Sequence record: PQ657772.1
DNA from: Escherichia phage EC.P1
Reading direction: 5' to 3' (one strand)
Length of the DNA: 64,000 nt
Shown: piece by piece, positions 21,337 to 25,075 of the stretch
Numbering within the stretch: position 1 is the first letter of the stretch
How the letters are laid out: every line of letters starts with the position of its first letter
Made by a program: the position numbers and the translations under genes
Notes under the pieces: generated by a model
The model's input: only the letters and a program-made list of their open reading frames with translations
Databases searched by the model: none
What the model was told of the DNA's origin: nothing

Positions 21337-21792
21337 TTAATTGAACTCGATTTCTGGATAATGATTATAGAACATCTCACGTACTGCGTCAAGCTGTTCT
21401 TTAAATTTCTCAATGTCATCAAGAGTTAGTACAGTGTTACTAACTGTACTCAACTGAAAAAGTGCCTCTTCAGTACTGTTTTCTGATAAATCAAATGTAC
21501 ATGATGAATCATCTGTTATAATATTATCACATATTTCAAATGTGTCAATATGAACATCATTGAGTAGATCACCACTATAATCATTATATATGAACACAAA
21601 AATGTATGATGGTTTTTTTATCTCAGTTTCTGACTCATAGGCTACCAAATCATATGTTACGTAACATTTAAAGTCAGGTGAATCGTATTCCATAGATACA
21701 ATTCCTATATCACGATATTGATTCGCTTCACTGATTAAATCCGGTATAGGTGTAATACTAAGTAAATGGAAAAACTGTCCTGGATTTAGCAT
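21337..21792 (-). CDS. hypothetical protein, FQ-block family member (tandem array)
   Basis: Contains NSTEEALFQLSTVSN. Confidence 0.55.
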   Translation of the reverse strand: MLNPGQFFHLLSITPIPDLISEANQYRDIGIVSMEYDSPDFKCYVTYDLVAYESETEIKKPSYIFVFIYNDYSGDLLNDVHIDTFEICDNIITDDSSCTFDLSENSTEEALFQLSTVSNTVLTLDDIEKFKEQLDAVREMFYNHYPEIEFN

Positions 21793-22241
21793 TTGATTAC
21801 CTTCGGGTTTTGCTCTGTGATATCAAACATAGATAGAACGAAATCATTTAGATTTTCAACACAATTGATTATAGTGCTTAAATCAGAATAACTAACTGTT
21901 AAATTTTTAACAAGAGATTCCTGAAAGTATCCTTCTTCAGTTGAGCAATAACTCACATTTGAGATAGTCTCATAATGTATATCTTTGCTTGTTTTACATG
22001 TTATAATTTCTATTATATCCGATGTTGTGTTATATAATAATATAAATGTTGTTGTTCGTGAATTCTTATTGTAAAATGCGAGTTCAGTGCTGTCATATGT
22101 TTTCTCAATAAGAACATTGTACTCTTCCGAAAACGATGTGGAAATTCTAATTATCTCTTCTGGTTCAGGAACATAAGATCCATCAAATTTACAAGACAAT
22201 GCAATTTCAAAATGATTTTTTATTTCATCAATTTTCATCAT
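21786..22241 (-). CDS. hypothetical protein, FQ-block family member (tandem array)
   Basis: Contains CSTEEGYFQESLVKN. Confidence 0.55.
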   Translation of the reverse strand: MMKIDEIKNHFEIALSCKFDGSYVPEPEEIIRISTSFSEEYNVLIEKTYDSTELAFYNKNSRTTTFILLYNTTSDIIEIITCKTSKDIHYETISNVSYCSTEEGYFQESLVKNLTVSYSDLSTIINCVENLNDFVLSMFDITEQNPKVIKC

Positions 22242-22633
22242 AGCTCACCATTTAATTTGCTATTTACATATTCTAATGCTTTTTTAACAATGCCAATTTC
22301 TGTAACTCCTATTACATTTTTCTCGATTAACGACAATTGAAATAGTTCATCTTCCTCAATATCAATACTATGGGTTCTTGACCAATAAACGTTGAAGTCA
22401 TATGCATATCGTATTGTATTTTCTTTAATATCAAGTACCAATATAACCATACCATTGTGTAGGTATGTCAGTGTTTTTCCGTATATATTAAAAATTAACC
22501 TATCTGGTGTACCCAATGGAAGATGAATTATATTTTGTGTAGTTCCAACAATAACAAAATCATTATCTATATTTTTATTCAAGTCACCTAGAATGTCATA
22601 TATAGTAGTCATGTTAATCTTGACCCTCAGCAT
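22238..22633 (-). CDS. hypothetical protein, FQ-block family member (tandem array)
   Basis: Contains IEEDELFQLSLIEKN. Confidence 0.55.
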   Translation of the reverse strand: MLRVKINMTTIYDILGDLNKNIDNDFVIVGTTQNIIHLPLGTPDRLIFNIYGKTLTYLHNGMVILVLDIKENTIRYAYDFNVYWSRTHSIDIEEDELFQLSLIEKNVIGVTEIGIVKKALEYVNSKLNGEL

Positions 22634-23033
22634 TTCTGATGATTCGCATTACTTCTCTGGATACGTTGTATACTTTTTTATAGTACTCAAATGTAACTGA
22701 ACCAAAATCATTAACCGTACTATCCATGAAGAACGATTCTTCGGTGCAATACACACCTGTAATTGAAACATGCTCATGATGGAATTTAGCATCTTTCCAG
22801 TAACGGAATTCGAAAATAAATTGCCCGTCATGACCAACCCTACAACACTCAGCACGGTCACTGTCTACGCAGCTAATCACAATATCCCTTTCGGAGTCAT
22901 ACCAGATATTTCCAATATTTGTTTCAATAACTGCATAATCAATTTTTGTAGAATTGGGAATTACACCTTTTTTTACCAGTACTAGACTGGTATTATCAAT
23001 ATCAAGTAAACTTACCATATCAACTCCCCACAA
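22614..23033 (-). CDS. hypothetical protein, FQ-block family member (FM variant, tandem array)
   Basis: Contains CTEESFFMDSTVND. Confidence 0.55.
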   Translation of the reverse strand: MWGVDMVSLLDIDNTSLVLVKKGVIPNSTKIDYAVIETNIGNIWYDSERDIVISCVDSDRAECCRVGHDGQFIFEFRYWKDAKFHHEHVSITGVYCTEESFFMDSTVNDFGSVTFEYYKKVYNVSREVMRIIRNAEGQD

Positions 23034-23430
23034 TTACTGTGTTTTTAATTTCTAACAATTCACTATACATCTTCTTCAATTGTACAATATCTTCATATAA
23101 AATACCACCCATATCATCAATCAAAGAACGTTGGAATAGTGATTCATCTGACTGTATCGTGTCCAAATCAGAAATTTTCAATACTGTAACTGGGTTTAGG
23201 GTGTTTACAATAAGTTTGTTTGTGTATGGTATGTATGTGATCTTGATATTCATTTCCGAATCAAGGGCATACAACCTCAAAACAGACAAATCACCACAAA
23301 GTTGGATTTTTGGTTCATCAAACTCATCAGACCACCACATAGTACTAGTCATATAATTGACGTGTTGGTTCAAATGTGATATATCCAAATCGAAATAATA
23401 TTTTAGTTCATTGTGTAAATCTAAACTCAT
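23020..23430 (-). CDS. hypothetical protein, FQ-block family member (tandem array)
   Basis: Contains QSDESLFQRSLIDD. Confidence 0.55.
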   Translation of the reverse strand: MSLDLHNELKYYFDLDISHLNQHVNYMTSTMWWSDEFDEPKIQLCGDLSVLRLYALDSEMNIKITYIPYTNKLIVNTLNPVTVLKISDLDTIQSDESLFQRSLIDDMGGILYEDIVQLKKMYSELLEIKNTVIVGS

Positions 23431-23485
23431 AAATTTATCCTCTATGCATCATTATCTTACAGTGTAGGATAAACCCACGATAATG

Positions 23486-23881
23486 TCAAGATGTGAATTG
23501 CTTATACCAGTGATACAGTTCTTTCAATTCTTCAGTACTGAATAGAACATCTTCAATCGTTGTTTGTTGGAAGTGGTAATCTTCATTTAAGTACATTGAA
23601 ATATTTTTATATACTTTTCGATTACATTTCCCAAGAAATGATGTTCTTTTGGATGTATATTCAATAAATGTTAACTTATCTAATTCTACATCCAATGACA
23701 ATTTCATACAGTATTCAGTATCATCTACGTACATAAGTTTATTTGAATAACAATCAACTGTGATATATTCTTTATGTGAGAATTGGTATATACCATTAAA
23801 TTTTTTACCATTTGTACTTCTGAATTTTTCAAGGTAATAAGAGAGTGGTTTAGATATTGTACTACCAATAGTATTATTCAT
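23486..23881 (-). CDS. hypothetical protein, FQ-block family member (tandem array)
   Basis: Contains NEDYHFQQTTIEDV. Confidence 0.5.
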   Translation of the reverse strand: MNNTIGSTISKPLSYYLEKFRSTNGKKFNGIYQFSHKEYITVDCYSNKLMYVDDTEYCMKLSLDVELDKLTFIEYTSKRTSFLGKCNRKVYKNISMYLNEDYHFQQTTIEDVLFSTEELKELYHWYKQFTS

Positions 23882-23902
23882 AGAACCTCAAAATTTAGAC
23901 AA

Positions 23903-23926
23903 GAAAAATGCCCCGAAGGTCGGGGC
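23903..23926 (-). terminator. rho-independent terminator
   Basis: Minus-strand hairpin gccccga/tcggggc followed by ATTTTTCTT. Confidence 0.55.
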
Positions 23927-24038
23927 AGTACGAAAAAGATTTTGTACAAAAAAGGGGAATAATACAATAAAATAATAACGCATCATTATTATGTAAGGGA
24001 GGAAAGTAACATGATAATGTTAACCATTACTGGTATAA

Positions 24039-24590
24039 TTATTTATCATTTAATTCTTTTAATTGAGCTTGTATATCACCAGAAAGTTTACGGATTTTCT
24101 TGAAACAGTAAACACTATCATCAAGTTCAAGTTCTAGGCCGTGAGTGATTGCATAAAGCATTTCTGCAAGTACTAGATCCTGACGCATCCAGTTACCATT
24201 TTTATAGGTTGTCATTACACAATAAGGACAGTGGCTGTTTCCGGTTTGTTTACCCAGGAACACAGATTGGATTGTATCATGCTTGAAACCCACAAAAGAT
24301 TGGTTGATCTTGTTGATTTCAGCTACTACGTCCATTTGTGCACCAGTGTTGATTGCAAACACTTGGTCACCGTTCTCGGTTTTGTTAATGTTTAGTTCAA
24401 TATCACTACCAAGTTTACGAACAGCCAATGTATAAAGTAGGATTTCATACATATCATAATTGGTTGTTTCACCATTTGGTGCAGTTACATCGAGACTAAC
24501 ACCATGCATTTTAACTTCAGTACTGAATCCATCTTTATCTGCTAGAAAATCAGTGATTTGTTCAGTTAGGATTTTAATTTGTTCAATCAT
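24039..24590 (-). CDS. hypothetical protein (183 aa)
   Basis: Six-frame ORF between two terminators. Confidence 0.55.
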   Translation of the reverse strand: MIEQIKILTEQITDFLADKDGFSTEVKMHGVSLDVTAPNGETTNYDMYEILLYTLAVRKLGSDIELNINKTENGDQVFAINTGAQMDVVAEINKINQSFVGFKHDTIQSVFLGKQTGNSHCPYCVMTTYKNGNWMRQDLVLAEMLYAITHGLELELDDSVYCFKKIRKLSGDIQAQLKELNDK

Positions 24591-24610
24591 TATTCATATC
24601 CTTATGTTGG

Positions 24611-24636
24611 AAAAAGCCCCCATTACGGAGGCTTTT
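24611..24636 (-). terminator. rho-independent terminator
   Basis: Hairpin agccccc/ggaggct with flanking A and T runs, downstream of 24647..25075. Confidence 0.45.
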
Positions 24637-24646
24637 GTTAATCTAA

Positions 24647-25075
24647 TTATAGGGAAGCTTCGTATTCAGCTACAATGTCAACCATCTCATTGACAAAGTT
24701 GATATGGTCATGAGTTACGGTACGGAAATCATAAACCAGTGATTGTTGGAAGAATACGTCTTCAGCCAGATTACCTTCAAAGTTCAGGTCGATGTTTTCT
24801 TCATCGTTGGTTGGAGCAACTTTGATATTTAGTTGATTTTCATCAACGACCAATTTCACTACACAACCCAATGCAATCGCCAGTACATAGGCAGGTTTCT
24901 TAGCTGCTTCAGAACGGAATGGAGCACGTAGTGCACAAATGGTGCTGCTAATCTCATCATTCAGTTCTTTATATTTAACGTTAATCATCAGTTCTTCAAT
25001 TTTGACGCTCTCGATTACACGACCAGTTTCAGCAGCGAAGAAAGAGTGGTTACGGATAGTTTGTTCGATATTCAT
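24647..25075 (-). CDS. hypothetical protein, FQ-block family member
   Basis: Contains NLAEDVFFQQSLVYD. Confidence 0.55.
   Translation of the reverse strand: MNIEQTIRNHSFFAAETGRVIESVKIEELMINVKYKELNDEISSTICALRAPFRSEAAKKPAYVLAIALGCVVKLVVDENQLNIKVAPTNDEENIDLNFEGNLAEDVFFQQSLVYDFRTVTHDHINFVNEMVDIVAEYEASL

Follow-up and report, generated by a model that had tools for sequence, protein, structure and literature searches.

Seven neighbouring paralogs of a jumbo coliphage as an apparently old cluster within a very large, lineage-specific gene family

How do seven small genes with very different sequences but one common block come to lie side by side in a phage genome, and what may they be kept for? 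The question is raised by a stretch of 64,000 nucleotides (nt) from Escherichia phage EC.P1 (record PQ657772.1; the whole stretch is called the window in the following, and positions are counted from its first letter). The original prediction for this DNA described a head-to-tail array of seven paralogs sharing an "FQ block", which was taken to be locally amplified and rapidly diversifying, as seen for host-range, anti-defence or effector families. The seven open reading frames (ORFs), designated here as FQ1 to FQ7, are indeed present on the minus strand at the places claimed for them (FQ1-FQ6 at 21337-23881, FQ7 at 24647-25075; Table 1). However, as judged from the comparison of genomes, they represent an old, syntenically fixed cluster inside a very large lineage-specific expansion. 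By sequence relatedness, the source is a jumbo coliphage of the Asteriusvirus type: over 21000-25400, its DNA shares 99.7% identity with Escherichia phage WPEC3, while eight further jumbo coliphages match at 97.6-99.4% and the 121Q, PBECO4, phAPEC6, G17, ph0011, and UE-S1 lineages (genus Asteriusvirus) at about 80-84%. The G+C content of the window is 31-38%, almost every gene lies on the minus strand, and coordinates in WPEC3 are obtained by adding 81,476 to those of the window.

The seven proteins exhibit pairwise identities of 11-30% and a single sharp common block in a MAFFT alignment. This block follows the pattern [ST]-E-E-x-x-F-[QM]-x-S-[TL]-[VI]-x-D, lies about 30-40 residues from the C-terminus in all seven proteins and is followed by an amphipathic segment. 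The block had been predicted for all members and occurs in seven of seven, but the F-Q pair itself is retained in only six, the fourth protein carrying F-M (FFMDS); moreover, T replaces S in the block of FQ6 (FQQT). A profile constructed from any six of the proteins retrieves the seventh among the 232 ORFs of the window at expectation values (E) of 4e-7 to 2e-2, and a 93-sequence family profile, from which the protein under test and its relatives of more than 40% identity had been removed, matches each of the seven at E values of 1e-14 to 2e-7. Since these leave-out alignments span about 70-120 of the 131-151 residues and therefore cover most of the protein, the similarity is real and extends beyond the block. 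The almost complete difference of the N-terminal regions, as originally described, holds for the sequences as such, yet these regions are homologous according to the profile alignments and the shared predicted fold. A strict regular expression for the motif is present in 47 of the 64 family members of the WPEC3 genome (see below), compared with only 2 of its 773 other ORFs, one of which resembles an additional family member. It is confirmed that the seven genes constitute one tandemly arranged paralog family, homologous over the full length.

A local amplification would be expected to show up as variation in copy number or cassettes between related phages. No such variation was found among the eight Asteriusvirus-type genomes examined, which agree both in the set of seven genes and in their order (they include fEgEco12, G17, phAPEC6, PBECO4, ph0011, UE-S1, and one divergent metagenomic relative). 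The sole defect seen among them is an FQ6 orthologue of ph0011 that is split over two frames (segment positions 6502-6881; an 82-amino-acid (aa) remnant is annotated in the record), owing either to pseudogene formation by frameshift or to an error in sequencing. BLASTP searches with each of the seven proteins retrieved homologues of 26-49% identity from other genomes, but none of the neighbours in the array at E<0.01. Furthermore, the corresponding locus of phage RaK2, confirmed at 100% identity, lies in a region colinear with positions 17.5-32.4 kb of the window. The order of genes in RaK2 is an FQ7-like gene (43%), an orthologue (48%) of the 183-aa gene located between FQ7 and FQ6, an FQ5-like gene (25%), an FQ4-like gene (30%), a peptidyl-tRNA hydrolase gene (pth2), a family member without BLAST match, a gene for a membrane protein, an FQ2-like gene, and orthologues of the gene at 21062-21322 and of a methyltransferase gene. 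RaK2 thus contains four family genes plus the pth2 and small membrane-protein genes (segment positions 8107-8526 and 8891-9232, without counterparts at that position in EC.P1) where EC.P1 has six family genes. The closer homologues in other genomes and the colinearity with RaK2 imply that the duplications predate the split of the genera Asteriusvirus and Alcyoneusvirus, and the array does not appear locally amplified. The variation of cassettes that had been envisaged is seen between the genera, i.e., in the different slot contents of EC.P1 and RaK2, but not among close relatives, where the contents are fixed; the slot as such persists between genera, while its content drifts faster than the flanks.

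The claim of rapid diversification requires a similar distinction. The amino acid identities of FQ1 to FQ6 to their orthologues in the 121Q clade are 64, 48, 65, 83, 66, and 73%, respectively (mean 66%), with FQ2 as the most divergent orthologue, compared with a mean of 81% for 16 neighbouring genes outside the family. The identities of the array genes to RaK2 are likewise 25-43% or undetectable, versus mostly 45-74% for the flanks. These values support the view that FQ1-6 form a local hotspot of divergence relative to the flanking genes, and to this extent the array does diversify faster than its surroundings. FQ7 is conserved at 87% in the 121Q clade, at 87-94% across the Asteriusvirus lineages, and at 43% in RaK2; the FQ7 orthologue of G17 is annotated with 193 aa (segment positions 6639-7220) and continues into a longer, different C-terminus after the similarity stops at residue 130. 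No sign of positive selection accompanies the divergence: the gene-wide ratios of nonsynonymous to synonymous substitution rates (dN/dS; Nei-Gojobori method, three lineage comparisons) are 0.04-0.46 for the seven genes, resembling the 0.02-0.39 of the neighbours, and never exceed 1. As far as such comparisons go, each gene of the array is kept by purifying selection. The synonymous rate (dS) differs greatly between the genes, suggesting mosaic recombination at the locus. A recent local amplification, with cassettes diversifying under positive selection and varying in number between related phages, could still be argued from the excess divergence of FQ1-6, the different slot content of RaK2, and the frameshifted copy in ph0011. 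It is nevertheless very improbable and already largely refuted by the identical copy number and order in eight genomes, the colinearity with RaK2, the low identity of paralogs that all have closer homologues elsewhere, and the dN/dS values.

The array represents only a small part of the family. Searches of the window ORFs with a hidden Markov model (HMM) and jackhmmer identified 17 members, namely the seven array genes and ten others. In the whole WPEC3 genome, for which every ORF of at least 70 aa was scanned, 43 members were found by the 93-sequence profile alone (E<1e-3) and 64 after iteration to convergence, the latter number possibly including a few marginal members. They occupy two territories at 84-106.5 kb (17 members, corresponding to the left part of the window) and 326-355 kb (about 40 members), with a few scattered elsewhere. 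The family accounts for about 6-8% of the genes in Asteriusvirus-type jumbo coliphages. Its proteins comprise only about 100-200 aa and are acidic for the most part, with a median isoelectric point of 4.65 (n=93) versus 5.17 for the other ORFs of the window. A profile search of 1.84 billion representative proteins returned 99 clusters (at 50% identity), all of 62-222 aa and nearly all containing the motif, and the word-indexed matches are all located on contigs of phage size (about 350 kb) or on pieces of such contigs. In IMG/VR, a degenerate DNA pattern of the motif was found no more than 10 times; the matches are distributed over six contigs of 345,809-378,379 bp, and each of these loci contains clustered family ORFs. 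A fold search of predicted viral structures led to proteins of RaK2, GAP32, CBB, and the Yersinia phages fHe-Yen9-03/04, all of them uncharacterised (fHe-Yen9-03 is a member of the jumbo-phage genus Eneladusvirus), and the nearest isolate match of one family representative is Erwinia phage Hallingskeid. In the databases and genomes searched, the family was seen solely in RaK2-like jumbo phages; no member was detected in the first 50 kb (early region) of phage PA5oct.

No significant match of the family to Pfam, NCBIfam, PADLOC, or sequence profiles of the PDB was obtained, and the weak Pfam matches of single members (DUF1473, NGO_1070-like, SUKH_6) are below threshold and inconsistent between members. 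One of the 93 sequences of the alignment, which is not among the eight longest members that were re-scanned, matches Pfam RecQ-1-like_HTH (PF21220) at E 3.7e-12. In PHROGs, each of the seven genes matches its own group at E 1e-42 to 1e-76 (phrog_30548, 30841, 36084, 24510, 24941, 33313, and 23322, all labelled 'unknown function'). The family is thus split into many separate groups in this database, with weak cross-matches (E 1e-5 to 1e-2) hinting at their relatedness. No description of the family was found in the literature on 121Q, PBECO4, RaK2, GAP32, CBB, Sharanji, and fEgEco12, in a comparative review on jumbo phages, or in the CBB supplements; the RaK2 and CBB papers merely record the existence of paralogs, and the review refers to an expansion to about 35 copies in Bacillus phage G as 'unprecedented' (PMC7824862).

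An AlphaFold2 model of FQ5, calculated from the 93-sequence alignment, reached a predicted local distance difference test score (pLDDT) of 95.2 and a predicted template modelling score (pTM) of 0.86. It consists of a helix at residues 5-13, seven strands within residues 21-86, a helix at 95-102 that coincides exactly with the E-E-x-x-F-Q-x-S block, and a further helix at 112-135. The model of FQ6 exhibits the same topology at a pLDDT of 73.6, and proteins of RaK2, GAP32, CBB, and the Yersinia Eneladusvirus superpose at template modelling (TM) scores of up to 0.86 despite identities of 13-23%. The predicted common fold therefore comprises an N-terminal helix, a seven-strand antiparallel sheet, a short motif helix, and a long amphipathic C-terminal helix with hydrophobic positions every three to four residues. 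The near-invariant columns of the alignment are T94, E95, E96, F99, Q/M100, S102, T/L103, V/I104, and D106, with Q100 replaced by M in 15 of 93 members (16%). Because hydrophobic and high-entropy, hypervariable positions alternate along the strands according to the column statistics, one face of the sheet is probably buried beneath the helices, while the other should be exposed and hypervariable.

No solved structure matches significantly in a fold comparison with the PDB, the nearest topology being that of the p32/gC1qBP/MAM33 proteins (PDB 1P32, 3RPX, 7TE3, 3QV0, 1YQF; PF02330). These appear to share with the family models the order of an N-terminal helix, seven consecutive antiparallel strands, and a short plus a long C-terminal helix on one face of the sheet, are also mostly acidic, and represent the only full-length topological matches among solved structures. 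The MAM33 profile (PF02330) did not match any of the 93 members at E values up to 10, and hhalign of the family against a manually entered sequence of human p32 yielded a probability of 0.1. Membership in MAM33 was rejected for want of a sequence signal and because of the weak superposition.

The timing of expression may be judged from the arrangement of control elements. The pattern TTGACA-N16-18-TAHAMT occurs at 16 sites of the window, all on the minus strand, versus 0.98 expected from shuffled sequences. These sites were assigned as sigma-70-type promoters by consensus, conservation, and strand bias. One of them lies between FQ6 and FQ5, from where it probably serves FQ5 to FQ1; across six lineages, the -35 hexamer of this site does not change despite the variable coding sequence around it. 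Another precedes a unit consisting of a 64-aa gene and FQ7, which ends at the terminator at 24633-24611. The terminators included in the original prediction are present in the form of two intrinsic terminators (23927-23909 plus T-run, and about 24633-24611), and the cluster is apparently laid out in short transcription units, with sigma-70-type promoters and intrinsic terminators as their borders. In the phage T4 paradigm, sigma-70 sites are the early promoters of a phage with a gp55-type late sigma factor, and since the genome encodes a gp55-like late sigma factor, the sites found here should equally be early promoters, of which they provide a usable map of likely candidates. The related phage PA5oct depends on the host RNA polymerase and TTGAC/TATAATA promoters (PMC7318152). 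In the virion proteome of phAPEC6, a relative of EC.P1, the array orthologues gp127c-gp134c are absent from the 62 proteins identified (PMC7247149), which renders a virion or host-range structural role of the array proteins unlikely.

Taken together, we tentatively favour an early cytoplasmic repertoire of diversified binding proteins on a common scaffold, a reading that we place somewhat short of an even chance. The array genes would be transcribed early by the host RNA polymerase, and the proteins would act in the cytoplasm. The invariant helix-turn would hold the common scaffold together, and the exposed variable face of the sheet would give each paralog a different partner. The partners would most plausibly be host proteins, implying a role in host takeover or in the neutralisation of defence or toxin proteins, and the seven neighbours would represent seven distinct specificities kept side by side rather than fresh copies. 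Several points weigh against this proposal. The binding role is deduced from the architecture alone, the acidic bias is modest (the background median isoelectric point in the window is 5.2), and the gene-wide dN/dS values carry no sign of an arms race. Between orthologues, the C-terminal helix has about the same share of variable sites (44%) as the sheet region (48%). The promoters are assigned by consensus, conservation, and strand bias, and the stretches from the two terminators to the genes that follow them (the 183-aa gene and FQ6) did not reveal any promoter. Moreover, a shared active or ligand site could be represented by the six conserved polar residues in the block (T, E, E, Q, S, D), which would favour one common activity over many specificities.

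Two other readings are the main rivals to a repertoire of binders. The family may perform one generic job as acidic oligomers of the p32/MAM33 kind, which would deal with basic proteins (such as DNA-condensing proteins of the phage or nucleoid proteins of the host) in the manner of chaperones, sponges, or nucleic-acid mimics. In this case, the many copies would reflect dosage, timing, or partial redundancy rather than different targets. We consider this rather unlikely. A modular adaptor appears less probable still: here, the invariant acidic helix-turn (TEExxFQxS[TL][VI]xD) would dock all members on a common hub, such as the Lon-like or ClpP-family protease of the phage or a host machine, while the variable sheet would recruit different targets. 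The two-sided architecture, with about ten near-invariant residues (six of them polar) against a hypervariable surface, the very large copy number, and the presence of genes for an ATP-dependent and a ClpP-family protease in the genome would all fit. The argument is architectural only, however, and the family genes are not co-localised with the protease genes. In addition, the block is predicted as a packed helix with core-like hydrophobic residues, and much of its conservation may therefore be structural.

Two further alternatives hardly merit credence. In one of them, E-x-x-[YFL]-F-Q would be a protease processing site and the proteins precursors releasing a C-terminal peptide. The consensus TEEEYFQQS does resemble the ExxYxQ pattern, as tobacco etch virus (TEV) protease cleaves at ExxYxQ/S and 3C protease at LEVLFQ/GP (the slash marking the cut). 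Yet the block forms a well-packed helix with pLDDT values above 90 rather than an exposed linker, Q is exchanged for M in 16% of the members, the next residue is variable, and the proteins are apparently not virion components. A site of the TEV/3C type was rejected on account of the packed helix and the Q-to-M replacements, and one for the T4-type prohead protease (L/I-x-E) because there is no L/I at P3 and the proteins are absent from the virion. Equally far-fetched are virion-internal or decoration proteins like those of the T4 internal-protein loci. They would agree with small acidic proteins from a variable locus, and the neighbouring gene at 25270-25605 carries the label 'virion structural protein' in some records, but the genes follow sigma-70-type instead of late promoters, and identification as virion proteins was rejected in view of the orthologues missing from the phAPEC6 proteome.

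Comparable arrangements of genes have been reported from other viruses. Comeau and Krisch are said to have described hyperplastic regions and internal-protein loci of T4-like phages as small, fast-evolving genes with host-type promoters between conserved ones. These plastic regions resemble the array in grouping small genes of unknown function that evolve fast and look non-essential, but they consist mostly of unrelated ORFans varying between close relatives, whereas the array contains a single family in an order fixed across genera, the proteins of which are not packaged. The MGF110, MGF360, and MGF505 families of African swine fever virus (ASFV) and the ankyrin/PRANC proteins of poxviruses are multigene families presumed to manipulate the host. 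Like the phage family, they include dozens of tandem paralogs in two genome territories and combine a variable region with a short conserved C-terminal block; unlike it, they have unrelated folds and hosts, while the block of the phage family is without a known docking partner and no variation in copy number between close isolates was seen here. Finally, Zhang, Iyer and Aravind reportedly described in 2011 tandem immunity proteins such as SUKH in polymorphic-toxin loci and some viruses, each thought to bind a different protein. SUKH-type arrays are also composed of divergent small alpha+beta paralogs in runs on one strand, but the seven genes neither match a SUKH or Imm family nor lie next to toxin genes.

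The coordinates of the cluster and of the other features are collected in Table 1. Overlaps of 4-20 nt had been proposed for the array genes, and those of 7 and 4 nt are real, but the ones of 14 and 20 nt arise only because the longest ORFs were taken. The starts of the third and fourth genes at 22612 and 23018 are annotated in relatives and are the sole ones preceded by a Shine-Dalgarno sequence (GGGGAG, 5-nt spacer). With these starts, the junctions become -7, -4, +1, and +1 nt, a pattern that fits translational coupling. The 183-aa gene indeed is the single unrelated gene interrupting the array. It shows only weak matches to Syd (SecY-interacting protein; NCBIfam E 0.005) and PtuB (PADLOC E 0.015) and contains a CPYC motif. 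Across six lineages, the spacer between this gene and FQ6 (23882-24038) exceeds the surrounding genes in conservation; it contains an anti-Shine-Dalgarno-like element, whose CCUC pairs with the GAGG of the FQ6 ribosome-binding site across the terminator hairpin in the minimum-energy fold (z-score -4.0). An Rfam scan of 21000-25400 gave nothing credible, the sole match being RAGATH-12 at E 0.28. The stretch at 23928-24038 could be a 3' untranslated region (UTR) of the 183-aa gene, a leader for translational control of FQ6, or a small RNA.

Table 1. Positions of the array genes, further family members, and control elements in the window. Leave-out E refers to the family profile without the protein tested and its close relatives.
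Feature	Position	Strand	Characteristics
FQ1	21337..21792	minus	151 aa; motif STEEALFQLSTV; leave-out E 1.4e-14 over residues 28-147; dN/dS 0.14-0.41
FQ2	21786..22241	minus	151 aa; motif STEEGYFQESLV; overlaps FQ1 by 7 nt; leave-out E 1.2e-14; dN/dS 0.20-0.32
FQ3	22238..22612	minus	124 aa with the start of relatives; longest ORF to 22633, 131 aa; motif IEEDELFQLSLI; leave-out E 1.7e-7
FQ4	22614..23018	minus	134 aa from ATG with GGGGAG Shine-Dalgarno; longest ORF from TTG at 23033, 139 aa; motif CTEESFFMDSTV; leave-out E 5e-14
FQ5	23020..23430	minus	136 aa; motif QSDESLFQRSLI; modelled protein; leave-out E 3e-12
FQ6	23486..23881	minus	131 aa; motif LNEDYHFQQTTI; most divergent of the seven; leave-out E 8e-10 over residues 17-129
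FQ7	24647..25075	minus	142 aa; motif LAEDVFFQQSLV; best conserved of the seven; leave-out E 2.6e-13; dN/dS 0.04-0.08
183-aa gene	24039..24590	minus	outside the family (HMM E 3.3); RaK2 orthologue at same position, 48% identity
Intrinsic terminator after 183-aa gene	23900..23927	minus	TGCCCCGACCTTCGGGGCA plus T-run; conserved in six lineages
Intrinsic terminator after FQ7	24611..24633	minus	AGCCTCC-GTAAT-GGGGGCT plus T-run; compensatory stem changes across six lineages; annotated terminator in phage G17
Conserved non-coding stretch	23928..24038	minus	UUUCCUCCC element (anti-Shine-Dalgarno-like); alignment of six lineages
Predicted sigma-70-type promoter upstream of FQ5	23461..23489	minus	TTGACA-17-TACACT
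Predicted sigma-70-type promoter upstream of 64-aa gene and FQ7	25341..25370	minus	TTGACA-18-TACAAT; 11/12 consensus bases; TG-extended
Examples of other sigma-70-type sites	3783-3812, 6066-6093, 10382-10410, 10527-10554, 15143-15172, 17004-17032, 19054-19082, 26148-26176	minus	consensus pattern
Ten further family members	2836-3285, 3316-3792, 4462-4821, 4814-5230, 7846-8223, 8611-8976, 11608-12114, 17505-17948, 18328-18783, 18780-19292	minus	HMM and jackhmmer

Some observations on the genomic setting may be added. A Dcm-like cytosine methyltransferase gene (19819-20679) adjoins the array; its product has 286 aa in EC.P1, 121Q, PBECO4, and RaK2 but is annotated with 626 aa in ph0011 and UE-S1 (1800-3680 of each locus segment), which suggests a fusion or insertion in those lineages. 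WPEC3 contains further long tandem arrays at 22.8-27.2 kb, 27.3-47.6 kb, and 355-361.5 kb, consisting of about 17 RCC1-like genes ('regulator of chromosome condensation') and two series of 60-85-aa ORFs with about 20-30 in each; mass paralogy generally characterises Asteriusvirus-type phages. The phAPEC6 virion proteome includes the products of 'DNA condensation protein' genes, which might correspond to the RCC1-like genes of WPEC3. Besides prohead proteases, the gene products of WPEC3 include an ATP-dependent (Lon-like) protease and a 399-aa protease of the ClpP family, encoded at 212986-215274 and 304876-306075, respectively. At its two ends (1-22 kb and 361.8-384 kb), the WPEC3 record shows repeated gene sizes and order, as would be expected if a terminal repeat of about 22 kb had been entered twice.

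Taken by itself, the cluster of seven genes is nothing unusual, being a conserved part of a family that is both large and old. The analysis yields a defined domain, a confident model, and a sharp signature motif for this family, as well as a gene set for interaction, toxicity, and anti-defence screens, in which the E-E, F-Q, S, and D residues may serve as mutational targets in comparison with the variable face of the sheet. Asteriusvirus-type coliphages are under development for therapy, and the family recurs in RaK2, GAP32, CBB, and Yersinia jumbo phages. If the proteins were to act as adaptors, these phages would carry a large hard-wired repertoire to neutralise or destroy host factors and defences, and the family would represent a bacterial-virus counterpart of the ankyrin/PRANC proteins of poxviruses and the multigene families of ASFV.

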